A stretch of 64,000 nt of DNA from Mytilus trossulus (GCF_036588685.1 NC_086384.1:10292001-10356000), one strand, 5' to 3'; counted from the stretch's first letter, positions 11,840 to 41,218 are shown. Notes: generated from the letters alone by a model not told the origin. Program-made: numbers and translations.

Positions 11840-12430
11840 GACGTATGCATAATCATATATTGGTTACAAATGTAATCCAACATCAGAATCATATCCATGA
11901 AATTACATTTTCCCATGCACTGCTATTAGCACTTCTCTGAACGCATTAAAAAGTTCAAATACCTCAATGAAGGAACACGATTATTTCCCCCTTCTTCCAT
12001 CATGCGTCCTCCTTAAAAAGAGTCTCTCTGTAGACCTAAGTATTAAATTTTAAAAGGCAATCAATTACAGGATCCTTGGTGTTATCAGTAGCAACTTTCA
12101 ATTCAACCGTTGCCGAAACGTATTCTTCTTCGATCTTTTCTTCTTTAGAAGTTGAAGGTATGATTGTACCTTTTCGAATATGTGATGTGAGTTTTGAATA
12201 TGCATATGCATGTATTTCGATCAGTATGGCACACTTACACCAACCAACAATAACGTTGTTGGCTACTTTGTCAGCAGATACCAAAACGTTGATCGAAAGT
12301 ACCAAAGAAGTGTGGCCATTTCCTGATGTATTTCTATCACTGGCAGTGTCTTACTTTAAAGTTATCAAATCTTGCTGGGAATTTAATGTAAAAGAGACGA
12401 TGTCATATAGTTTAAATATTTTTCAACAAT
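11840..12430 (-). mobile_element. Decayed Penelope-like RT N-terminal fragment
   Basis: VLVSADKVANNVIV resembles the PLE 'ADK..N' block; a degenerate 'YWLPKLH'-like segment (DCLLKFN) and RSANSS follow; stops are present. Confidence 0.5.
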
Positions 12431-13345
12431 TCTACATGTTCCTATAAAATCAAAATGCTATTTTAAAAAGCTGCTTGTTTAAAGTTTAAGGTATATTGAT
12501 AAAAATATCCAATTTTATATATGGTTTTTTTTGTAAAATTTTGCATGTTTATAGAAGAAGATTGTATAAAGTTATTTGAAATTGTTAATGTATATTAGAA
12601 AATAATAGTGAGATGTACATTTGAGCTATAAACTAAAAGTGGAACATTTGGACTAAAACCTTTTAAGTTTGGAATATGTTGAAATTTGGGCTAAATCTGT
12701 AGTCGACATTTGGGTTATATTTTAAAGTCGACATTTGGTTTAAATTAATCAACACATGTAAGGAATATGAAATTAAAATATTCTGTATTCAAGTAAATTA
12801 ATATCAAAAATGTTATAAACCGCGTATACAACGCGAAGGAATAAAAGAGCTTTTCTAAGATGTATATTAAACAAAATCTAATAAATTTGTCCTTAGATTG
12901 GTTCTGGTTCTAAATTTAAATCTTACAGGGTTTAAAATCTATAATCTTCTGAAACTGTAACACATGAAAGTAATTTTTTTAATATTTGATCTATAATGGC
13001 ATATGAAATATTTAAAATGATAAATTTGTTTCTGTATATTGGTTGAACAATAATTAACCCAAAATCAGAGAAATAAATATGTCTCTGCCCAAATGTAAAT
13101 GTTTTATAATTTTATCTGTTCTATACATGTTTTTATAATATTTTCTATGTTTTGTTAGTGGTGAGATTTGAATTAAATATTGTCCTGCCCTCATATAAAA
13201 TACCCAACCCTAAAAATACCTCGAGATCATCTCACTCCATCGGTCTCCCTTTATCTTGTCCGTTTCTATATTGATAAAAAGATTCTTAATCTTGTCAGAA
13301 TGTCAAAGACCACTGGTCGATGGGAATATATAAGATCATTCAGAT

Positions 13346-15616: not shown

Positions 15617-15637
15617 TGACGTCATATAATATATAAA
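15617..15637 (+). promoter_or_regulatory. CRE palindrome (TGACGTCA) next to a TATA box, core promoter candidate for paralogue 1
   Basis: TGACGTCA at 15617-15624 and TATATAAA at 15630-15637, about 80-100 bp upstream of the ATG at 15718. Confidence 0.55.
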
Positions 15638-15717
15638 TAGATAGTGTAGCGACCTGTCAAAACATTATACACGTTGTTGCGAACAAGGCTGGATCAATAC
15701 TAAAAAAATCTGTAAAG

Positions 15718-18700
15718 ATGAAACCACGTTCTAGGATATATGTTACAAGACAGATTCCGCAAGGAGCATTCGATGTTTTACTGGAAGACGGCAATGTTTC
15801 CTTTTGGAATAGCCATGAGCCGGTTCCTAGAGGCGAACTATTAAATAACATACAAGGCGTGGATGCACTTTTGTGTATGCCAACAGACAAAATAGATCGG
15901 GATGTTTTGGATAGGGCAGGTATGTAACTGTTTTATTACTACTATCTTCAGTATTCAGGAAAAAACGAAAAAAAAACTCGTGTGATGGGGGAAAATATAT
16001 ATTAAAATTGTCGTGTTACCAAATTATTTAAGGAACAGCTGATCGGCAACCTTGAGTCAGCCAATCAGATTGCTTTAAATCCACACACCTCTTAAAACAT
16101 GTTGTTAGTTGCTAATCAATATCAATATGTCACGTACACTTATGAAGTTTTATATTCTAAATGAAATATCAACGATATCTTATCATACCTATTTCTTATT
16201 CTTATGATGAATCCGATTCTTAGATAATATTTTTTGTGGGTTAGAAAAAAGGGGGAGGGGGTTATGGACTGGACTTTGGCTTGTCAGACTATAATAGAAA
16301 AATCATAAACTCGTTTATGTTTGCTTCTTTCTAAAGTAACAATATTTATTTTCTTAATATAAAATATGAAACGCTGTCGTATTATTTTGGTTTATTTAAA
16401 AGGAAGGCGTTCTTGTCACTCGTTGTATGAGTAACTTTTATTCATCGAAGCGATGTTTACAAACCCTTCACAGTGTAAGTGGCATCTTACAGAATATGTG
16501 GCATCTTCGAAGATTATATTAGATGCTGCATCTCACCTTTTTTGGACCCGCTTTTGTTTTTCTTCTAAGTGTTCAACTAAGTGTACAATTGTGTTCAAAT
16601 CCCTTATCCTAGTTAGAAAATTAGATGTACACAAAAAAAATTATGTATTTGTGTCAAGAAAGACCTCTGTACTTTAACAATGTGAATGTTTGCAGTTATC
16701 TTGACACAAGTACAGGTATGAGATCAAAGTCCACTTTCTCTGACCTCTTATGACCAGGTAAAGATAGATAAAAGTCACCTGAGTAAATATTCTTCCTATC
16801 TCACAAAGACATAACACATCTCTGTCTGTATTTTGACGGGATATATTATTGACAAAAACAGCACGTCTTAAGATCAAGGATAAACAAACTTAAGAAATTT
16901 AGGTCACCATCATACATACATGTATATGTAGAAGTATCTGTGACATCGTTTGAGAGTTGAAATGATACCTTCGTGATCGGTCTTGTACCTTAATTGTTTT
17001 CTTTTAAACATAGTGATACAATTTATACATATATATTAGCTTTTTTGATTTATAATTCATTTTATTTTCCGTGTCACCCCATTTTTGGTTTCTCATTCCG
17101 TACTTTTTTTTTCAAAAGAAAATAATACAAAAGAAAATAATAATGATTTTGACATGCATACTTGAGCAATTTAATTTACAAAATACTAAAAAGGATTTAC
17201 CTCCTTCTGAGAAATTAATAAATAGAAAATAGGACTTCCTTGTTAAAAAAATCTTGGAGTTCAAAACCCAGGTTTCAAAATCAAAGTTGAACTCAATTGA
17301 GACGGATTCAGGGTAAAGTGTTTTATGTCATTTTTTAAAATAAAAAAGAAGAGAGATCAGAGGGACACAGTTTTCTCCTTCATTTTTGTATATAAAATGA
17401 TATTCCAGAGAATATTTTGCTTCTGACACCGTATCTTTCACTGACTGCCTACTAGCTAAGCATACACGTGCACCACAATTAATAAAGGTTATTTGAAAAT
17501 ATTTAAATCATTTCAATATTGAAACTTAATAATGTTCTCAATCAAATTCTTTCAATATTGAAACTTAATAAATAAATGTTTTCAATCAAATTCTAGAATG
17601 ATATTTGTAATTTAGAATTTTAAATAGTAATTACTACTTTATTGTACATGTCATATAATATAAACATATTTTTTTGTGACAAAGAATAAAAACAAAATAA
17701 TACAAAGAGATAAGTAATTCCATAAAAAGAACTGACATTGTAATTGTGTAATGAGATTGTGGGATACATGTAGTTCCGACATGAGGTTAGAAGGATTGGG
17801 ATTAACTCTATTGTTCAATATTAAATTTAGATAACCCTAATGACGTTTTAGTCTATAATAATTCTATTAAAAGATCATGGTCATACCGGATTTAAAAAAT
17901 AACAACTCGACATGGTATCGAATAAAATACGTCATCATAGGCACACATGAGGAAGTATATACCGCACTAAAGAATTATTATAGATAAACCGATCGTAATA
18001 CTATTTAATCCGGTTTTGTCATGTTTGAGTTGTTGTCTTAACTTTATGAAAACATATATAATCATACGTTTTTTGATTGAGTTAAGTCTGCCAATTGATA
18101 TTTTATCGTATGTTTTTATATGTTGTGATGTTATGCTATTGTTTCAGAAAAAGGGAGAAGGTTTGGGCCCATTAAAACGTTTAATCCCGCTGCAAATGTT
18201 TGCACCTGTCCTAAGTCAGGAATCTGATGTACAGTAGTTGTCGTTTGTTTATGTAATATATACGTGTTTCTCGTTTCTCGTTTTATTTATATAGATTAGA
18301 CCGTTGGTTTTCCCGTTTGAATGGTTTTACACTGTTATTTTGGGGCCCTTTATAGCTTGTTGTTCGGTGTGAGCCAAGGCTCCGTGTTGAAGGCCGTACT
18401 TTAACCTATAATGGTTTAATTTTTGAATTGTTGTTTGGATGGAGAGTTGTCTCATTGGCACTCACACCACATCTTCCTATATCTAATAAATACATTATTA
18501 GCGTAACTTAATTTAACCGATGATAAAATAAATTAAGAATATAAGTTGTATGGTTTATACTGACCCCATACGGATCCATAGAGGATTAGTAAAATCCATA
18601 ATGGGTTAGGCCGAAAGGACGAATTATCTATAGATTTTACTAACCCTCTACGGATCTGTGGTGGTTCAGTAGTGAATCGAACAACAGCTGTTTCGCACAC

Positions 18701-20144
18701 AGAACTTTTTCTGTCAAGTTTGGTATAAAAATACAAATTCATTTAATAGATGCCGTCACCAGTTATAAAATCTCTTGACCAATGTTGGTGATAGGGGGTC
18801 ACCACATGACGGTGTTAAACCAGTCACAACGTACTTACTTACCCAATTCAAAGTGCGATAAATAACTTAGTTCAAAGTAACAGTTGACAGTCCCCTTGTA
18901 AATTCAATGTGTCCAAGGTTAAATAAAGAATTTGAATATAATTTATATATTGACAGAAAATGTCATATATACAAATATTAGAAAAGTTTTATTTATTTTC
19001 AGGTCCATCTTTAAAAGTGATTGGAACATTATCTGAACTTTGTGATCACATAGATGTAGACGAATGTAAAAGACGTAATATCCAAATTATCACCATGCCG
19101 TCCATATCTACAGAAATTGTAGCTGATTTAACGGTAGCTGCACTTGAGGGACAGTTAATGTCAATTGAAGGTAAACAACGATATATATTAGAGTTATCCC
19201 CCGTTGACCACTTTGAGAAAAAAAGTTTTGAATTTTTTAGCTTCATTTTGATTTTGTTCTTTCAAGTAACATGATATGTTTTTGTTTGAAACATATACTT
19301 TTTTCATCAGTGTGAAAATCGTTGGCAAAAATATGTAACAACTGTAAATATGTTTTGATTTCTGTTACGCAATCAGAAGTTATTACATACATTTACAATA
19401 CGATTGTTTCTAAGACAACAGAGTACAATATACATACTACATTTAAGTGCATTTTGTTTATCACAACAACAACATTACAGATATGATAGTTATGACTTCC
19501 ATGTTTCTGAACTTATAAACACGATAAAACATTGTCTTTTTTATTTTCCAGACGTTAATGCAAATGAGTCAATAAATAAGAATGACGTAATACAAAAAAT
19601 GTACAAAGGCAAGACACTGGGACTTATTGGACTTGGGAGCACTGCTGTTGCCATTGGTAAACGATTACGTGAAAAGGGCATCGCAGACATTAAATACAGT
19701 GATTTTACAGTCAAATCAGCACAAGAAATAGAAATAGGAGCCAATTATGAAGAATTTGAAAAAGTTTTAGAGGAATCTGACATCATTTGTATCTGCTGCA
19801 GAGGAAACAATAAAAACAGTGAACTATTTTACAAGGACGCTTTTAAAAAAATGAAGAAATCGGCCATCTTAATCGATGCAGCACGTGGTCATGTAATTAA
19901 CTACTATGATTTATACGAGGCCTTACGTGAACAACATATATCTGCTGCCGCTGTGGACTTGAGAGAGCAGGGAAAGATCCCTTACAAAGATCAATTGTTA
20001 GGATTAAATAACTGTATATTCGTTCCGTATCAAGAATCTAATCGCTGGGACAAGAGAAGCAAAATTTCTGCAGTTGTATCAAACAAAATTGTTGCAATCT
20101 TACAAATGGGTTGTATTCCTGAGAATTGTCCAGTGTCTGGCTAA
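15718..20144 (+). CDS. GRHPR-like D-2-hydroxyacid dehydrogenase paralogue 1, divergent and probably catalytically inactive; exons 15718-15919, 19003-19170, 19552-20144; 320 aa
   Basis: Two phase-1 GT-AG introns at the same positions as in paralogues 2 and 3; 963-nt spliced frame; YVTR, LLCM.TDKID, DIICICC and MK..A.LI..ARG motifs; GLGSTA, DLREQGK and PYQE replace GxGxxG, DVTEPEP and PHMG. Confidence 0.88.
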
Positions 20145-23222: not shown

Positions 23223-25416
23223 ATGTCTAAACCAAAAGTATACGTTACTCGACGGGTACCGGTTGATGGATTGGAACTTCTGAAACGTAAATGTGAGGTA
23301 CAAATCTGGGATGTCGATGAAGTTATTCCGAGAAAGACTTTATTAGAGAATGTTAAAGGAATTAACGGAATATTCTGTTTGATAACAGAAACGATCGATG
23401 CTGAATTCCTAGATGCTGCTGGTATGTATTTGTAAATGTGCATTTGAATGAATATGAACATAAAATGTATTGTTTAAAACTGATTTTTGTCAGTAAATGT
23501 CTTATCATCCTCTATAAATAAAAACGAAAAATACGCATGTTTTAACAACTATGATATGACTGAAATTGTTAGTCGTTGAAGTACTTATTTTTGAAAAAAA
23601 TTTAGTTGGGGATTAAAGCATTATTACTTTAAAATTAAATTTGGACCCTTTTTCTGAAAAATATGGCGTTGTGTATTCTTTGTGATAAATAGTAAATTTC
23701 TAAAATTCAAATCTTCGTTTACTAAATTCAACAAAAGTGCACTATTGATTGGCTAACATATGACAACAGGATGAAAAGCTATTACTATTATAACAAATAG
23801 AAACCATAGTTTGTTTTCATCTAGTACATTTTATTAATATTTGTAGGTCCTGACCTCAGAGTTGTGGCCACGATGTCCGTTGGGACTGACCATATTGATT
23901 TGAAGGAGTGTAAGAAGAGGGGAGTTTTCGTCTCTAACACACCGGATATAGCTTCGGACAGTGCCGCTGATCTTACTATGGCGCTTGTCCTAATGACAAC
24001 AAGACGTCTTGTTGAAGGTAATAATATAAAAAATATTTATGGGAGAGCTCTTCTTTTCATTCCAAGCCTGTTGCTTTCATTTATATAAGTATATATATAT
24101 AGAGAGATAATGTTGATGTGTGTGGCATGAGCTAAGAAAATATAGCTTCACATATTATTGAAAGGGAAGTGTTAACATTGGTTAGGAAATAAAAACACAT
24201 TTTGATATGACAGGAAATGAAAATACCTGTCGTTATAACTATAAATTGAAATATATGTAGGTATGACAAAAGGTTGACATATATGTAGGTATGACAAGAA
24301 ATGATAATATTGGTCTTAATTATTTTAATTGTTAAAAAAAAGTCGGAATTTAAAATGAAACACTTTTGGAACTGACATGTATTCGTTGTCCAATAACTTA
24401 TTGTAACATTCGAGTAAGTGATGGAGCATGTCTCTAGAGTATCACTGGTTATATATATAATACATGATCACATATATCTTAACATCTTCGTGAAGAGAAC
24501 GGGAGTGGAACGTACGGTAACCCTTGTGAAGAGAACGGAGGTGGATCGTAACCCTTGTGAAGAGAACTGGAGTGGATCGTAACCCTTGTGAAGAGAACGG
24601 GAGTGGGTCGTAACCCTTGTGAAAGAACGGGAGTGGATCGTAACCCTTGCCTAGCGAAGAGGATATCTTAATGGTAGTGCAAGTCAACTGAAATAAATAG
24701 TTGACAATAGTTGTAAACTATAACTAATGTCTTTAAAATACTGGTATATTTATACTACTTGTATGTTTAATGTGAAAATACAATATGTTATCATCAATTA
24801 TAATTTAATGGATTCCTTTTTTTTTCATCTTTAAGGAGTAGATGCTGTTCGACAAGGTCAGTGGACACATTGGAAACCCATGTGGTTATGTGGTTCAAAT
24901 ATGATGTCTAAAACTATTGGTATTCTGGGATTTGGTCGTGTTGGCTTTGGTGTTGCGAGGCGACTTAAACCGTTTGGGGTCAAAGAAATTATTTATAACG
25001 ATATCCGACCACATGAATTCGCAAAAGATATCGCTACCTTTGTCTCGTTTGACGAGATTTTAGAGAAATCAGACATAATTTGCATATGTTGTGCACTGAC
25101 GTCACTGACAAAGGGTTTATTCAATCAAAGTACCTTTAAAAAAATGAAAATGAAACCCGTGTTGATAAATACATCAAGAGGAGGAATTGTTCAACTTGAT
25201 GATTTGCATAATGCGTTAACATCCGGTCAGATTTCAGCGGCTGGACTTGATGTCACCGAACCGGAACCTCTTCCGTCGGACCACCCATTGGTGTCTTTAC
25301 CGAATTGTGTCATTTTACCTCACATGGGTACTAACACGAATGAAGCAAGGAAGAGTATGTCAATAAACACAGCAAAAAACATTTTGGCGGTCCTTGATCT
25401 TACTGATTCGGATTGA
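23223..25416 (+). CDS. GRHPR: Glyoxylate/hydroxypyruvate reductase-like (D-2-hydroxyacid dehydrogenase) paralogue 2; exons 23223-23421, 23847-24017, 24836-25416; 316 aa
   Basis: 951-nt spliced frame with GT-AG introns; TMSVG, GFGRVG, NTSRG, AGLDVTEPEP and LPHMG all intact (Arg/Glu/His triad). Confidence 0.93.
24484..24660. repeat. About 30-bp minisatellite (gtgaagagaacgggagtggatcgtaaccctt) x5 in intron 2 of paralogue 2
   Basis: Direct periodicity; the unit matches the right arm of the palindromic element at 27450-27528. Confidence 0.9.
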
Positions 25417-26815: not shown

Positions 26816-27750
26816 TTAGCTCACCTGGCCTAAAGGGTCAATAGAGCTTTTCTTATCACTTTGCGTCCGTCGTCGTCGTCCGTCGTCGTTAACTCACACA
26901 AAAATCTTCTCCTTTGAAACTCCAAAGCCAAATTTAACCGAACTTGGCCGGCCCACAATCATCATTGGGTATCTCATTTAAAAAAAAAATGTGTTCAGTG
27001 ACCCAGCCAACCAACCAAAATGGCCACCATGTCCAATAATAGGACATAGGGTTAAAATGTAAGTTTTGGCTAATATCTCTGAAACCAAAACATTTAGAGC
27101 AAATCTGACAGGGTAAAATTGTTATTGAGGTTAAGATACATCTGCCCTGAAATTTTCACATGAATCGGACAACCCGTTGTTGGGTTGCTGTCCCTAAATT
27201 GGTAATTTTAAGAAAATTTTGCCGCTTTTGGTTATTATCTTGAATATTATTATAGATACAGATAAACTGTAAACAGCAATAATGTTCATCAAAGTAAGAA
27301 CTACAAATAAGTCAACATGACCAAAATGGTTAGTTGACCCTTTAAGGAATTATTGGCCTTAATGGTCTATATTTTACAATCTATATTTTACAAAAATCTT
27401 CTCCTCTGAAATTACAAAGACAAATTTAACCAAAATTAACTTGCCCACAATCTTCGCTAGCCAAGGGTTACGATCCACACCCGCTCTAAGAGAGCAGGAG
27501 TGGATCGTAACCCTTGGCTAGCAAAGATGCTTGCCCACATTCATCATTAGGGTTTTTAGTTTAAAAAATGTGTCCGATGACCCGGTCCGCGAACCAGGAT
27601 GGCTGACATGGTTAAAAATAGTACATAGGGTAAAATGCAGTTTTTGGCTCATATCTGAAAGCGTTTAGAGTAAATCTGACGGATACAATTCTTTATTAGG
27701 TCTAGATCTATCTTCTCTAAAATTTCCAGACCAATCTAGCAACCCGTTTA
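26816..27750 (+). mobile_element. Helentron-associated non-autonomous element (HINE-like), 3'-truncated
   Basis: Starts ttagctcacctggcc, has a (gtc)n tract and internal long tandem units; same family as 53963-55244. Confidence 0.75.
27450..27528. mobile_element. About 79-bp palindromic mini-element nested in the HINE
   Basis: atcttcgctagccaagggttacgatccac / gtggatcgtaacccttggctagcaaagat; cttgcccaca duplicated at 27440-27449 and 27530-27539. Confidence 0.8.
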
Positions 27751-30700
27751 TAAAATGGATTAAAAATGTTGCGCTAAAATTGCAATTAATAATTCTACTT
27801 TTCGCTAAAATCGGTGAAATAGGTTGCGCTAAACTAGGTTTAACTTTGTGGTCAAAACCTCCATTTTTTGCGCTAAAAAGTCCTCCATCGTGAATTTAAG
27901 AACACTGTCATGAGACTTTAATTGACTCCTAAACAGACCAGCTTATAAATTGTCTATGATGCATCGATCATTAAATTGTTCCGAAATTATTATTTTTTTA
28001 GCTGAAAGTAAAATACATTTCGGGTTAGAAAGGGACCGTTACAATTATTGGTATTCTTTCAATCTTCTTAAACATTTTTCTTTCAACATTTTTTTCCTTA
28101 CTTTGCATATCAAAGTAACGCAAAACTACCGTTTATGGTGTTCAATATTATACTAATGCAACAATAATTTGATGAATTAAAGTTATTTGTTATAGACCAT
28201 TTGCATACTCGGAAATCCGAAAAAGTCAATAATATGACTTTATTGCGTAGTACACTTGTACGCGATAAAACCTATTACTACGCAGTTTTATTTATTTGTG
28301 TAAATACAGGTTACCTTTGTGCACTTATCGTCGGATTTATAATCCTTGTGAATCGTTATAAATATGACATCTTCAAACAAACCTTTTGGGAGAGCTGTGA
28401 AGGGTGCCCTTTTCATATTTTTTGTACTTCACCAATTGATTCCGGAATATTTCAATATATTTAGATATGTGCATTAGGCATGTTAGGTAAGTCCTTTTAC
28501 ACATATTATATGATATATGGATAAAGTGATTGATAATGTTTGTTTCAATAACTAAAACTGAATACTATATAATTATACGCTCGGTATTTTTTGTAATCCT
28601 GTTTGCTGCAGTCAATTAAGAGTGACTAGGACGTTGAGAAATTAGTAATTAACTGATCAAACCACTATAAAATCAAAAATGGTTTCTTGATATTCAAGAT
28701 GTCTCTTGGTTTTAAAAATCATTACTTTTAATTTTATATTGAAAAAAAAATGATAAATTAACTAATATATTACTTCAAAAGGTTTAATTTAACAGTAACA
28801 ATTATTATTATTATTATTATTTGATATTTAATTATAATGGTATGTAATATTTCATTATTGTTTTCAATTTTAAATTATTTTAGCTTTGAAATTGTACTTT
28901 GGAATTAATTACCTCGACGTTTTGTATATTAAATGAACAGCGAATTTCTTCATATTCTAGTTGTCAATCGATCCCGGCCTGCCTACACATCGACAGCAAT
29001 GCCATGCACCATCCTAGGCATTGTCATAGCTAGTTTCCCCATCATGTTAAGACCCAGAACCAGCTCTCACAGATGTAGTTCGTCTGTTGAGAGTCTGTCG
29101 GGAATCAACGACTAACTTCACAATATACCAACAATCTATATACCATTCATATGTATAGCAATGTCGTCTTTTTTTTGGGTTAAAATATATGGTGGAGGAC
29201 CCGGGCAAATATCTGTCAGAATACTAGGTGTTTACTACCTTTGTATGTAAATTGTTAAAATAGAGGAAATTATTATCATATTATTTTTGCTGATGAAGAT
29301 AAACATAGTGGAATTTTATTCAGCAAACTATCACATATGACAACGAATAACATTTTGAAGAATAACAAAGGAATTCAAATACTGACTGCAGGCCATATTA
29401 TTTGTTTTAACTTAGACCATCCTATGACACCTATATGTATGTATCCTAACGATATAAAACCCAAATTTAGGACACATATCTTAGAAGACTTTGTTTAAAT
29501 TGTTTTACATTTGTCTTATCGGCGCCTTATATAGCTGACTATGCGGAATGGACTTTGCTCTTTGTTGAAGGCCGTACGGTGACCTATAGTTGTTAATGTC
29601 TGTGTCATTTTGGTCTTTTGTGGATAGTTGTCTCATTGGCAATCATATCACATCTTTTTTTTATATTTGGTAAATTTAACCATCAAAACACTAATTTGCT
29701 ATTTCGTGGCGGTCAGTTTTTGTTGATCAAGGTAGTGGTAGAAACAATACTAGTCAATTATGATTAGATTTGAGTGCATCTGCACCGTGCTGGAACTTAA
29801 ATGAAAGAGTGCATCCAGTCAGTACTATTAAAAAAAAATAAACAAAAATTGGGGGATAAAAACAATCCTCCACTCCGCCGATTTTTCTTACTTTTCATTT
29901 CTAAAAAGCTGTTTGGTTTCTTATTTCGCCCCAATATCGTAGACTCGGTCTATTTATAGTTTTTCATACAAAGGAGCAAAGAACGCTCGTTTCATTTATG
30001 TAATAATACGTAACTTACTACGTAAGATTGACAACGTGTCAAGAAATGAGATCTTTACATTTAATCAAACGGTAAAGCTTTTCTCTCCTTTGAATATATA
30101 TACAAGAAAGACAAACAAGTATGAATCAAGCGTGTTCGTGTGATATAATTTGTCAATACAAGTGAGATTTATAACAGAATGCACCTTTAAAGGGATAAAC
30201 CGAGTTGAAAATGTTACGTAATTAATGTCAGATTAAATTGTCAGATCATACAAAACACCTCATCTTTTAAATCGTTTTGAAATCAGACATAAGTCAATAT
30301 GAATTAGCGTGCACAGGATAGCACGTTTGCTGATTGATCAAGGTTATTTAATTAATATATAATTAGACAGAGGTATCAATTAGAATATTTTGTACTCTTC
30401 TGCGTTCTTTTTGTTAACGCACCCTTTTGTCGTCATTAAGATGTTCGAATGTTGTTCGTTATGTTGCGGAGGTTGGATCGTCCTTCATTTGACATTGTCT
30501 GGTATCGATCGATCGATAGAAGAGCTGATTCTAAACCTTAACTTTCTCACGTAATCCTTCCGTTCATTTCACTGTTGTGTATAAAATACTGTCCAGTATC
30601 GTATAAAGCCGTTTACAGTGTCACCGACATTTCAACACAGAAATATTGATAACAGCTAAAATCTTGCTATATTTACTCTATACAAATACTAGTTATAAAT

Positions 30701-30764: not shown

Positions 30765-33488
30765 ATGACAAAAATTAAAGTGTTTGTGACTAGGAGAATA
30801 CCCCAACCTGGACTTAATATACTACAACAGGATTGTGATGTACAGTTCTGGGACAGCGATGAAGCCATTCCACAAGAAGAACTTCTCAAGAGAGTACATG
30901 GAGTTGGAGCTTTGTTGTGCATGCTGACTGATAAAATTGATGAAGAAGTTCTAGCAAAAGCAGGTAAATATACATATTTTATTTACTTGTGAAGATTTTT
31001 ATGCCTCTTTTTTTTAACTTTTCGATCAGAATTGTAATATTTGTAGATAATATTATATTCATGTAAAGTCTGCTTTTGAATTCACTTGCAAAATCGCCAT
31101 GCAATCGCAGAAGCTGCTTTGGATCTTTCAACTGCTTTAGAATATAAATAACAAACTTTGCCGGCGACAATTAGGATTTGACTGTCCAAGATATGCGTTG
31201 GTTCCCTTTCGTGTCGTGTAAATTTTAACTGCGACGATGTATATGTTTTCATTTTTAAAAGCAGACATTTCGTAGCTGGTTTTATTTGAAATAATTCGAA
31301 ATAAATAAGCTTCATTTCAAGTACTTTTCAAGTTACGACAAACACTTTTACTTCATTTTTTTTTGGTGATTATTTAGATCAAAATTCGGGAAAAGGGGGG
31401 ATTGATGTATCTTAAAAATTCGTTTACTTGATTCAAAACTTAACAATATTGTAGAAAGATTAGTGCTGATTTGGCAATAAATATAAGAAGTTAGTGCATA
31501 TGTCAGACCCATGCATCTTACATAATTGTATTGATTTTGTTTAATATAAATGATGAATGACATCAACATTCAAATCTTCAATGGGAGCAGTGCAATAGCA
31601 ATCCACTTTATCTGGTTTTAAAATTCAATGTGAGTTTTAAATCTAACAAAATAAAAAAAATGAAATATATCGGAAAAAAAGTGCACATCAAAAACTATTT
31701 TTGCAGTGTAAGGGAAATAATCCCGATAGGACTCATAACAAATACTTGAAATAGGCTCTTTTTAATAGGTGAAAACCTGTGTATTAACACATATGCTCCT
31801 TTTAATAGGTGAAAACCTGCGTATTAACAAATATACTCTTTTTAATAGGTGAAAACCTGCGTATTGTATCCACAATGTCAGTAGGATATGAGCACATAGA
31901 TCTTGAAGCTTGTAAAAGGAGAGGGATAGCTGTTACAAACACTCCAAATGTGTCAACTGATAGTGTGTCAGAACTAACGGTGTCTCTTCTACTGCTGGTG
32001 GCCAGAAGACTATATGAAGGTACATGTAGATTTAAAATTAGTCTTGAGTTAGATATATCATAAAGTAGAGATGTTAAGTTATAAATAGTAATTGCTCAAC
32101 TTGATAAGTTACATGCATGCTTGTGCAAATGCTACCCACTTTTAAGCTATGTTCATGCTCTATAATTCAACATTTTTTGTTACAGCAATGTTTTGCTAAT
32201 GAATATTTTAAAGAAAATGAACAATAATCCGGTATAATTATTTGAACATGAGAATAATTGGAAAGTTCAGCTCCGACATTCCACACAAATAAAATGACAA
32301 ACAATTCATCCAAACTTCAATCTAATTAAAATATAGATCTCTGACTTTGTTATACTGCGTTATACTCATATGTAGTGTAACGAAATCAGAGATCTATATT
32401 TTAATTAGATTGTCCATTCTCAGAAATGATTATTATTAAAACCTTAAGAGAGCTCAACATAAATGTAGTTAACGAACACCAAGTAGTTTTCTTGGATTTC
32501 AATGAAATTGTTTGAAAACAAGACTTATTCGTATAAGAATTTCAGCTCATATCAAGTTGAGAGAAACTCAAAACGTCATAGCAAACCCCCACCCCCAAAC
32601 AAAAACACCACGAAAATAGAAACAAACCCACAAAAGCACAACTTAGAACAATACAGATAGTGCAACACAAACCTTACCAAAACCAGGAGATGATCTCAAA
32701 TGCTTCGAAAGGGTAAACGGATACTGCTACTCATTTGGCGCATGTTGAAAGGACCAGTTTGGCTGACCATGTCAATATGTGCTTTTTATCATATCATTAC
32801 AAATGCTATTGGTATATGCACAAAGACCCCTTTCCGTTAAATAATATACATATGCATCCATTGTATTTCAGGAATACGTGCAGTACACGGAGGAGAATGG
32901 GGTAAATGGAAGCCTATGTGGCTGTGTGGAGTAGAATTAACAAACAAAACAGTCGGAATCCTCGGACTTGGTCGTATAGGATACGGGGTGGCCAAACGAC
33001 TAAAACCTTTCGGAATTGATAGAATTATTTACCATGATGTCTGCAGAGTCAGTTATGCTGATGATATTGGCGCTACATATGTAGATTTTGCCATGTTGTT
33101 GAGCGATTCTGATATCATATGTATATGTTGTAATTTAACTCCACAAACAAAGCACAAGTTTAATACGAAGGCTTTCGAAAAGATGAAGAATAGCGCAGTG
33201 TTGATTAATTCCGGGAGAGGGGGAGTAATCCAACATGATGACCTATATGAAGCATTACGTACAAACACTATTGCTGCTGCCGGATTGGATGTCACTGAAC
33301 CGGAACCACTTCCTAAAGATCATCCGTTATTGACATTAAACAACTGTATTGTTCTCCCTCATATGGGTAGTAATACATGGGAATCAAGAAACAGTATGTC
33401 GGAAATTGCTGCGACTAATATTATTTCTGTTTTAAATGGTACGAATGCAGTAGGTGAAGTTATTCCTCCGCGTAGTAATGGTCTATGA
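30765..33488 (+). CDS. GRHPR: Glyoxylate/hydroxypyruvate reductase-like (D-2-hydroxyacid dehydrogenase) paralogue 3; exons 30765-30963, 31849-32019, 32872-33488; 328 aa
   Basis: 987-nt spliced frame; TMSVGYEHID, WKPMWLCG, GLGRIG, NSGRG, AGLDVTEPEP and LPHMGS intact. Confidence 0.93.
31756..31865 (+). repeat. 40-bp tandem triplication of the exon-2 splice acceptor of paralogue 3
   Basis: ctc(t/c)ttttaatag|gtgaaaacctg(t/c)gtatt occurs three times, with AG at 31767-68, 31807-08 and 31847-48. Confidence 0.92.
32318..32412. repeat. 95-bp fold-back (palindromic) element in intron 2 of paralogue 3
   Basis: caatctaattaaaatatagatctctga / tcagagatctatattttaattagattg; decayed relative at about 13733-13800. 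Confidence 0.8.
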
Positions 33489-36163
33489 TTAAAAAATAGA
33501 ATGACAGCAACACGAGATCGCTTTGTTATATATTTTTTTTATCGTTAATTGTTCCCGATTATCGATATATTTGTAAACGAAACAGTAAAGCATAATATAT
33601 GGTTGATGTTGTAATTTGATTTCTTCGTTTTTGTTGAAAATAGTCTATGTTGGTCAAGTTGAAGGTTAACATCATTAAAGTTAAGTTGTTTCTGATGATT
33701 TCTTTATCTAAATAAAAAAAGGAGCAAAAGGCGAAATTTTCTTTTCAATATTAAAAAGAAGATGTGGTATGATTGCCAATGAGACAACTATTCACAAAAG
33801 ACCAAAATGACACAGAAATTAACAACTACAGGTCACCGTACGGCCTTCAATAATGAGCAAAGCCCATACCGCATAGTAAGCTATAAAAGACTCCTATAAG
33901 ACAATGTAAAACAATTCAAACGAGAAAACTAACGGCCTTATTTATGTAAAAAAAATGAACGAAAAATTATCATATGTACCAATTGAAAATTCAATCTGAA
34001 CATACATGTAAACTAAATGTGGTTAATTCATCCAGTCTTTCGGAATATACTGCTTATGTTTCTTTTGACGCTAAAATCGGAAAAAACACATTATTTTGTA
34101 CTGACTTTTACTACACCCTCCGAAGGTATTAAATTGTATTTTGTACTTTATTTTTTCCATATAAACTATTGTCTGATTCTGATATTGCATTCTTGCTCGT
34201 AAACGCGAAGACGATCGAATTATTCTACATTCATTGTCAATTTGGGAATAATGGAAAGTAAAAGAGAGGCGAAAGATACCGAAGGGACATTCAAACTCAT
34301 AAGTCGAAATAAACTGACAACTTCATCTCTAAAAAAGAAAAAAAAAACAACAAACAAATGATAGCCCCTTCCTTATACAATAATAGCAGAAGCTACTCGA
34401 TAGTTGTTATTATAAGAAAATCCCGAAGGTACTATACTCAAACTCATAAATCGAGAATAAACTGACAACAGAATGGCAAAAAAATCAAAAAACAACAAAC
34501 AACGACAAAACAACATTTCTATAGCAGTAAACTTACAAAATATTGACTTAGCAACATCTTTCAATCATGCACGCTAGCACCGTAGATGATCTCAGGTGCG
34601 CAGGTAGGGCTAGCAGATACTGCTGAACAGATGAAACACAATTATTGATTTTGAAAGTCTTGCACCGTGGTTGTTTTTTTCTGTGAAAAAAAAATTGAAG
34701 TACGGTATTCAGTAATAGTGCTGAAATGCATTGAATCAGGAGACAAAAACAGTATGTTATTATATTCCTGACAATTATAAAACAGTCAACTGTCTTGAAA
34801 AAAATGAGATGTTACATATTATAACATATTGCATCTGTGGCGTGACCAATTTTCTATAATTGCTTAAATCGTTAAAAAATCTGCATTAAGGAAAAATAAA
34901 CGCGTATCATTTTACACAAACCGAGCCGCTCGAGATATGGTGAAGCATTTTGATGTTTTGAAACTGGTAAAGGGTATCAGTTTAAAGCAGGAAACCAGTG
35001 ATTGATTGGAAATGATTCTACAATATGTATCGTTGTCTTGAGCTAGCTTAATACATGTATTTTATTGGAATGATTTTTTTTGTATAGGCCGCATGTGAGA
35101 TCTTTCTTTTCAAAATATAAGACTATGTCATACATGTACATTGAGAAACTAAAGATATAGGTTATTTATCATCCATGACACACAATCAGTACATACACAG
35201 TACAAAACACATTAAAAGTACAGCTCTTATTATTTCTGTTCTGTAACTCAAAACCACCATGAGGCCTTCAACACGAGGAGCAAAAAAGAACTCTCACATC
35301 GCTGGTAGTTTAAGACGACACCAAGCTATTTGAGCGGAATTCTTTGTAAAATAATTCGGGGAGATGTTTCACCACAAAATCATGCAATGTCAAAGATATC
35401 ATACTGGAAAGTAGTACATAGCTTACATCATGTACATTAAGCTAAAGTATCTTCTTTTTGAAAAGAGTATATAACTTAAAAGGTCATTGTCTTAGCAAAA
35501 AGAAAAGCCCCGCTTACTAGAACACAAAAATACAGAACACCAAAATCCAAAAGCAGCATAATAATTAATAAACCATAAGATGCAAGGACTGATTATTGTT
35601 TGAATAACAACTCACAATAAATTACCCTTAATGATAACATGGATAACTTCGAAAATATAAATATTATTTTAACATCCTGTCTCATTTTAAATGCACTTTC
35701 AAGATATGCAAATATATATTTTTTTAAAAATTTTATGGGAATGCTGATAAACTCTAAGTCATTTTGTTTACGATTAATGTGTTTTACAAATTAAAATATC
35801 CACATGTATACATCACAATCACGTCCCTCATCAACTACGTTCAATTTATAAAAACTACATAATTGTGAATGTGTGCTTATCAATACTATTTAATTCGAAA
35901 CCTTGATTTAAATGCAAAATCGAAATTTGTGAAAAACAATGTAGGTTTTATCATCAACAATTCATGTAATTTTAATAGTTAAATGTTAATAGCTTTGATG
36001 ACGAATTATTTATTCATTATTGATGAATTTATATATGTTATCTAAATGATACTATCTGCCCCTATTTTCATTATTGTCTAAGGCAGTCTATTATATTTTG
36101 CTCGTTATAAGTCATGATTATTGGAAAACTGAATATATTTAGTTAGATCCTATGATACCAATT

Positions 36164-40648: not shown

Positions 40649-41218
40649 CGCACAAACAAAGGAAAGGTCGCAGTTTCGTGGCAGATAGAAGGAAAGACCA
40701 AACAGAATAATGCATGATTCGCATAAACAAAGAAAAGGTCGCAGTTTCGTGGCACATAGAAGGAAAGACCAACCAGAATAATGCATGATTCGCATAAACA
40801 AAGGAAAGGTCGCAGTTTCGTGGCACATAGAAGGAAAGGCCAACCAGAATAATGCATGAATCGCATAAACAAAGGAAAGGTCGTAGTTTCGTGGCACATA
40901 GAAGGAAAGACCAACCAGAATAATGCATGAATCGCATAAACAAAGGAAAGGTCGTAGTTTCGTGGCACATAAAAGGAAAGACCAAACAGAATAATGCATG
41001 ATTCGCATAAACAAAGGAAAGGTCGCAGTTTCGTGGCACATAGAAGGAAAGACCAACCAGAATAATGCATGATTCGCATAAACAAAGGAAAGGTCGCAGT
41101 TTCGTGGCACATAGAAGGAAAGGCCAACCAGAATAATGCATGAATCGCATAAACAAAGGAAAGGTCGTAGTTTCGTGGCACATAGAAGGAAAGGCCAACC
41201 AGAATAATGCATGATTCG
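40649..41218. repeat. 60-bp minisatellite, about 9.5 copies
   Basis: Unit cgcataaacaaaggaaaggtcgcagtttcgtggcacatagaaggaaagaccaaccagaataatgcatgatt-like, repeating at a 60-bp period; explains three periodic minus-strand ORFs. Confidence 0.97.

Follow-up and report, generated by a model that had tools for sequence, protein, structure and literature searches.

What becomes of a dehydrogenase gene that has shed its catalytic residues and still encodes a full-length protein? The question is raised by a 64,000-nucleotide stretch of Mytilus trossulus DNA (NC_086384.1:10292001-10356000; the window), in which three genes of the 2-hydroxyacid dehydrogenase (2HADH) family stand in tandem. A preliminary description of this DNA singled out the first, paralogue 1, as intact, under selection and no longer a canonical dehydrogenase. 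Our analysis of splicing, of full-length orthologues forming one clade, and of conservation within Mytilus similar to that of paralogue 3 supports this proposal. Paralogue 1 apparently belongs to an ancient and real pseudoenzyme clade for which we found no earlier description.

Re-derived from the DNA, the coding sequence of paralogue 1 comprises 963 nt and encodes 320 amino acids (aa) without a stop. The protein is identical to M. trossulus XP_063409608.1 (P0032 in our protein set), annotated as 'glyoxylate reductase/hydroxypyruvate reductase-like'. Its two GT..AG phase-1 introns lie at positions common to paralogues 1, 2 and 3, all on the same strand. The preliminary description had named absence of expression as a point that would count against its claim. 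Contigs skipping intron 1 were present in 4/4 runs, as were contigs skipping intron 2 (in one form the letters at the exon end differ), and a single contig spans all three exons. Such exact skipping of the introns points to spliced RNA. Note that the contigs come from 4 of 20 listed runs (4 studies) whose RNA status is guessed, no run being recorded as RNA; the runs derive from coded organisms, perhaps of other species, and contig depth is unsuited to ranking genes. The spliced contig alignment begins at 15655, just downstream of a cAMP response element (CRE)-like palindrome, TGACGTCA, and a TATA-like box, located at 15617 and 15630 and forming a candidate promoter. This 8-mer has 4 copies in the window (0.83 expected) and was not found in the 400 bp upstream of the start codons of paralogues 2 and 3. 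Thus, the intact frame, the shared intron positions and the upstream elements were all as first described.

Paralogue 1 is a member of the 2HADH family by descent and fold. It contains Pfam domains PF00389 (70.7 bits; cut-off 24.6) and PF02826 (114.7 bits; cut-off 25.1), both shared with its top sequence match, human GRHPR (2HADH subfamily GHRB; E 2.4e-45). A two-domain fold was predicted with a pLDDT of 88.8 from a mixed alignment and 87.3 from a clade-only alignment, and the best fold match of the mixed-alignment model was again human GRHPR (2gcg; TM 0.76, 31% identity, E 5e-29). An NCBIfam scan gave no model at or above its cut-off, a search of the ESM Atlas returned generic 2HADH clusters only, and two metagenome scans contained no orthologous DNA.

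In 2HADHs, a Gly, an Arg, a Glu and a His bind the substrate core and are conserved in >90% of members, and an Asn locks the loop carrying the Arg (PMC6303947). The alignment of paralogue 1 with human GRHPR is gap-free across the catalytic loops. The catalytic His aligns with Tyr283 (TAT, codon 20028-30) and the catalytic Glu with Gly264 (GGA, codon 19971-73). Val-Gly of the carboxylate-binding loop (Gly73 of the reference) is replaced by Glu79-Leu80, the loop Asn by Asp232, and the Trp-rich dimer arm is gone. Of the four substrate-core residues only Arg235 (CGT, codon 19884-86) is retained. Human GRHPR thus has the His, Glu, loop Gly, loop Asn and trans-acting Trp arm that paralogue 1 is without; conversely, paralogue 1 has an NADH-type Asp, unlike human GRHPR, and molluscs hold separate His-bearing genes of the GRHPR type. 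The substitutions listed in the preliminary description (His to Tyr, Glu to Gly, GxGxxG to GLGSTA, SVG to SEL, and loss of WKPMW) were all present as described. Its statement that only the Arg of the triad remains is correct for paralogue 1, but not for its relatives, in which the Arg is dispensable (retained in 9/35, see below).

To place these changes, homologues were collected by three word-index searches, one full hidden Markov model scan and cluster look-ups, yielding at least 445 proteins. Among the matches listed, sorting at the catalytic His site gave 336 proteins with His, 86 without His but with Pro282, Asp290 and Arg292, and 23 that were set aside, mostly for truncated or garbled C-termini; one clear member among the latter (P0003) was returned by hand. 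Note that the His-less group is defined by the absence of His together with Asp290 and Arg292, so that those counts hold by construction, and that controls were chosen from His-bearing proteins. In the tree, 31 His-less members formed one clade (support 100/100) with none of 50 His-bearing proteins inside. With the site loops and the dimer arm removed, 25 near-full-length His-less members still formed one clade (100/99); long-branch or trait-driven grouping as sole cause of monophyly was rejected on this basis, though the long stems of bivalves and gastropods may in part attract each other. The paralogue-3 group forms the sister of the His-less clade (99/91, falling to 87/58 after trimming), and both nest with the paralogue-2 group in one clade (100/100), which does not group with vertebrate or arthropod GRHPR. 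Other molluscan His-bearing proteins of the GRHPR type (e.g. P0072, P0371) branch outside it.

Named bivalve members of the His-less clade cover mussels, oysters, scallops, unionids and clams (five Mytilus species, Saccostrea, Magallana/Crassostrea, Pecten, Argopecten, Mizuhopecten, Potamilus, Sinanodonta, Mya, Mactra, Mercenaria and Ruditapes), and gastropod members come from Haliotis, Lottia, Batillaria and Bradybaena. Named members from cephalopods, chitons or animals other than molluscs were absent from the matches listed; many of the matches are unnamed, making this range a lower bound. Orthologue conservation, proposed earlier as a check, was thus found in full-length form in five Mytilus species, across bivalve orders and in gastropods, and a recent Mytilus-only copy was rejected. 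Since the clade holds both bivalves and gastropods, the His-less lineage arose before these classes split, more than 500 million years ago.

Which functions has this clade given up? We reduced 87 His-less rows to 35 representatives at <88% identity (30 bivalve, 5 gastropod) and compared them with 30 His-bearing controls. All four substrate-core residues were present in 30/30 controls. In the clade, Gly80 was retained in 1/35, Arg235 in 9/35 and Glu264 in 4/35 (Asp in 17/35). Position 283 was occupied by Tyr (19), Phe (11) or Gln (5), and this site thus has no conserved titratable residue; a role for Tyr283 as replacement acid was rejected, Phe standing in its place in 11/35. His or Lys occurred at positions 283-286 in 3/35 members. 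Position 232 was Asp in 28/30 bivalves, and the Arg after GxG, the Thr of NTP and the L-T-x-x-T loop were lost as well. Because the acid-base His has been exchanged for Tyr, Phe or Gln and the loop Gly and mostly the Arg are gone, paralogue 1 very probably does not carry out the hydride and proton transfer typical of the family.

Alternatively, paralogue 1 might be a decaying duplicate, or an ordinary dehydrogenase with misaligned residues. All sources label it GRHPR or GRHPR-like, and one scallop record is flagged LOW QUALITY. However, the gap-free alignment to 2gcg speaks against misalignment, and full-length orthologues in bivalves and gastropods speak against decay. Paralogue 1 is 92.5-96.9% identical to its counterparts in four other Mytilus species, compared with 93.3-96.3% for paralogue 3, and the contig differences within its coding sequence (exon 3; among 40 listed of 488) were synonymous in 4/4 cases. 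We consider decay or misalignment highly improbable. Over larger distances paralogue 1 is 44% identical to its Mercenaria and 43% to its Mactra counterpart, versus 71% and 70% for paralogue 3; within the trio it is 40% identical to paralogue 3 and 33% to paralogue 2, and paralogues 2 and 3 are 56% identical. Because the Mytilus identities match those of paralogue 3 but the Mercenaria and Mactra identities are lower, paralogue 1 appears to be constrained at present and to have diverged faster over deep time.

The part of the cleft that receives the nucleotide has been treated differently from the catalytic loops. Gly147 was kept in 35/35 representatives, Gly150 in 33/35, Gly152 in 27/35 and Gly/Ala155 in 35/35. 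An Asp in the βB-αD loop marks preference for NADH (PMC6303947); this Asp174 was kept in 34/35, and the pyridine-binding Asp259 was present in 28/30 bivalves. GLGSTA as proof of lost NAD binding was rejected. The Gly to Ala change occurs in 4/30 bivalve representatives, and 26 keep Gly. Retention of Asp174, which determines cofactor specificity, argues against a ligand-free scaffold or abundant crystallin-like structural protein in which the new residues would staple the cleft shut. Such a protein would fit the prevalence of core positions among the 24 bivalve-invariant sites, the faster evolution relative to paralogue 3 (44% vs 71% identity to Mercenaria) and the loss of the middle Gly in gastropods. 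On balance we regard it as quite unlikely.

The catalytic half of the cleft has not simply eroded. In bivalves, Arg261 and Glu285 were each found in 30/30 representatives and in 0/30 controls. Trp289 (30/30) is also present in the paralogue-3 group, Asp290 is invariant, and Glu79 occurs in 19/21. Bivalves show 24 invariant sites among 309, most of them core positions, and 5 of the 24 are clade-specific. Four of these five fall in loops 259-266 and 282-292, which together span 19 positions (nominal P 5e-5, the loops having been picked afterwards). Because the adenosine-binding half is kept and the cleft has acquired new invariant residues, the cleft presumably still does something specific. Invariant charged residues in clefts are typical of catalysis, and the protein could be a new enzyme in which Arg261, Glu285, Glu79 and Trp289 form a site for, e.g., an amine-containing or nucleotide substrate; active 2HADHs without the His exist. 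Yet position 283 can be either Tyr or Phe, residues 235, 264 and 284 show free variation, the gastropods of the clade have neither Arg261 nor Trp289, and no solved structure of another activity was found among the fold matches listed. A new catalytic activity is therefore unlikely in our estimation.

The gastropod branch (P0180, P0182, P0183, P0185 and P0329) has its own fixed site, comprising N-x-C-N-Q, P-Q-T and Glu286, and judged from these residues may have a function other than that of the bivalve branch. Bradybaena contributes two adjacent entries to it.

The dimer arm has also changed. The RR pair, the W-x-x-W-x-P-x-W stretch, the KPF Phe and the PEPL loop, which we take to be dimer-building elements, were each present in ≥90% of the His-bearing set and in ≤30% of the clade. 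The segment bearing Trp141 was replaced in all aligned clade members, and arm length differs greatly between clade lineages. In GRHPR, Trp141 is contributed to the active site by the partner subunit (PMC6303947), and paralogue 1 might accordingly join paralogue 3 or 2 as a subunit without catalysis of its own and modulate or block the partner, for example by withholding this Trp. The sister relation to paralogue 3 and the L-x-x-L-x-N-C stretch conserved in clade and controls alike would suit such a role, as would recurrence of the tandem. Neighbouring accessions pair a His-less with an intact protein in M. coruscus (CAC5419170/172), M. edulis (CAG2194394/392) and M. californianus (XP_052081595/594), and accession or locus-tag order suggests that the tandem is also present in Mactra (ACF0H5_019288/019289) and the abalone Haliotis rubra (XP_046562398/400), where the contig size also agrees; in Mercenaria and H. 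asinina both paralogue types lie on contigs of matching size, without adjacency being shown. However, tandem position alone does not prove binding, and the arm is remodelled and of variable length. Loss of the arm makes a classical heterodimer with either of these paralogues less likely, and we judge the subunit role as a whole rather improbable.

Proteins with this fold and without its enzymatic activity are known from other lineages. Plant ANGUSTIFOLIA, of the sister clade of CtBP, resembles paralogue 1 in having the 2HADH fold without the catalytic residues (PMC6303947), and it depends on the NAD(H) domain for some of its interactions (PMC5469197). It differs in its separate origin, its long C-terminal extension and its dimerisation, paralogue 1 having lost the dimer arm. 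Animal CtBP1/2 use the fold as a proposed NADH sensor (PMC6303947, PMC5469197) but retain the triad and weak activity (PMC6303947). Paralogue 1 matches CtBP less well than GRHPR (E 4.7e-14 vs 1.6e-22) and nests among molluscan GRHPR-like enzymes in a tree that was built without any CtBP sequence. Substitutions of the His are likewise known, to Trp in subfamily X4 (PDB 1qp8) and to Lys in SERA type IIIK (PMC6303947); in the paralogue 1 clade Tyr, Phe or Gln takes its place, accompanied by loss of the Glu, Gly, Asn and mostly the Arg. By its sequence, paralogue 1 is thus predicted not to be an active 2HADH (which would have His or Lys, Glu and the loop Gly), and it is neither a GRHPR orthologue nor a member of the CtBP/ANGUSTIFOLIA group.

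We tentatively favour, at somewhat less than even confidence, a dinucleotide-binding regulator that would work in the manner of ANGUSTIFOLIA and be of separate origin. Paralogue 1 is predicted to have kept the ability to bind NAD(H) or an adenine nucleotide related to it. A partner or ligand would be held in the rebuilt cleft, and the two domains, opening and closing in response to the nucleotide, would expose a surface formed by Arg261, Glu285, Trp289 and Asp290. By further extension, the catalytically intact NADH-type neighbours would tie it to redox or fermentative metabolism. Several observations weigh against this proposal. The full GxGxxG is present in only 21/35 representatives and the middle Gly (Gly152) in 0/5 gastropods; as GxGxxG, the Arg that follows and L-T-x-x-T are eroded, NAD(H) binding may be weak or absent, especially in gastropods. 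The bivalve signature is not common to gastropods, which have Cys261 and Gln, Glu or Asp at 285, and because their site residues differ, one mechanism may not cover both groups. Loop 284-289 is the least certain part of the predicted fold (pLDDT <50 mixed, ~60 clade-only), and the Pecten maximus record is flagged LOW QUALITY. Finally, SERA type IIIK is active without His by means of a Lys (PMC6303947); this Lys is absent from the paralogue 1 clade. Of the three roles suggested in the preliminary description (regulatory subunit, metabolite sensor, crystallin-like protein), that of a classical heterodimer subunit is weakened by loss of the dimer arm, and a crystallin-like role finds no support here.

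Paralogues 2 and 3 retain all catalytic residues (Table 1). The paralogue 3 protein is identical to XP_063409606.1 (P0007). The NADH-type Asp was present in 13/13 members of the paralogue-2 and -3 groups, compared with 4/17 GRHPR-type controls, and by their position in the tree the two are members of a molluscan clade rather than GRHPR orthologues. Mytilus edulis and other molluscs are described as having D-lactate dehydrogenase activity exclusively (PMC2570690), and the snail enzyme as NAD-dependent (PMC3819915). The NAD-dependent D-lactate dehydrogenase of molluscs may be encoded by paralogue 2 or 3; our literature search returned no paper linking this activity to either gene. Upstream of the coding exons, paralogue 3 has a non-coding exon as well, marked by a GT..AG joint between ~28486 and 30729 that skips 2242 nt in 2/4 runs. 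A 40-bp tandem triplication at 31749-31865 copies the acceptor of its exon 2 (AG ends at 31768, 31808 and 31848). The joints listed use the last acceptor (31848); the other two would shift the frame.

Table 1. Features of the three tandem genes, with positions counted from the first letter of the window.
Feature	Position	Strand	Details
Paralogue 1, exon 1 (aa 1-67)	15718..15919	+	Intron joint skipping 3083 nt, GT..AG, 4/4 runs
Paralogue 1, exon 2	19003..19170	+	Glu79-Leu80 (codons 19035-19040) replace carboxylate-binding Val-Gly
Paralogue 1, exon 3 to stop	19552..20144	+	Rossmann domain
Exon 3 residues, first part			GLGSTA 19629-46; Asp174 19701; Asp232 19875; Arg235 19884; Arg261 19962
Exon 3 residues, second part			Gly264 19971; Tyr283 20028; Glu285 20034; Trp289-Asp290 20046-51; Arg292 20055
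CRE-like palindrome and TATA-like box	15617..15636	+	TGACGTCA 15617-24; TATATAA 15630-36; candidate promoter, above paralogue 1
Paralogue 2	23223..25416	+	Exons 23223-23421, 23847-24017, 24836-25416; 316 aa, all catalytic residues, NADH-type Asp
Paralogue 3	30765..33488	+	Exons 30765-30963, 31849-32019, 32872-33488; 328 aa, all catalytic residues

Elsewhere in the window, long tandem repeats at 1591-2273 (21 bp x 32.7) and 40649-41218 (71 bp x 8) create open frames on both strands, and high-copy interspersed repeats at ~18300-18490, 26860-27630, 29600-29660 and 33750-34000 occur in many contigs of all four runs. Upstream of the trio, a 135-aa open frame of ordinary composition (12040-12447), without a Pfam match, may represent an exon from an adjacent gene. 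Pfam also gave no match for eight other long open frames of the window.

Pseudoenzymes as a kind, and His-less members of the 2HADH fold, are already known. What appears to be new is that bivalves and gastropods have kept a His-less clade with invariant cleft residues of its own. A literature search, with most subscription papers outside its scope, found no description of such a molluscan clade, and the main text of PMC6303947 does not mention molluscs, its 111 proteomes being itemised in the supplement. In every named genome record among the matches listed, the clade is labelled as working GRHPR. Because of this labelling, mollusc transcriptome papers that report changes in 'GRHPR' may concern a non-enzyme; in the available portions of two mussel and oyster papers (PMC6697025, PMC10778899), the 'GRHPR' reported is not assignable to a paralogue. 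In its widest form, which we think fairly unlikely as a whole, the locus would be a three-gene cassette of Cambrian age, with two NADH-type enzymes (the D-lactate dehydrogenase candidates) beside a dedicated pseudoenzyme under CRE control that senses NADH/NAD+ and steers anaerobic end-product metabolism; this redox sensor of animals, similar to ANGUSTIFOLIA or CtBP, would have evolved independently from a GRHPR-like enzyme. In any case, for animals noted for their tolerance of anoxia, paralogue 1 is a small, soluble candidate regulator with a link to redox state.

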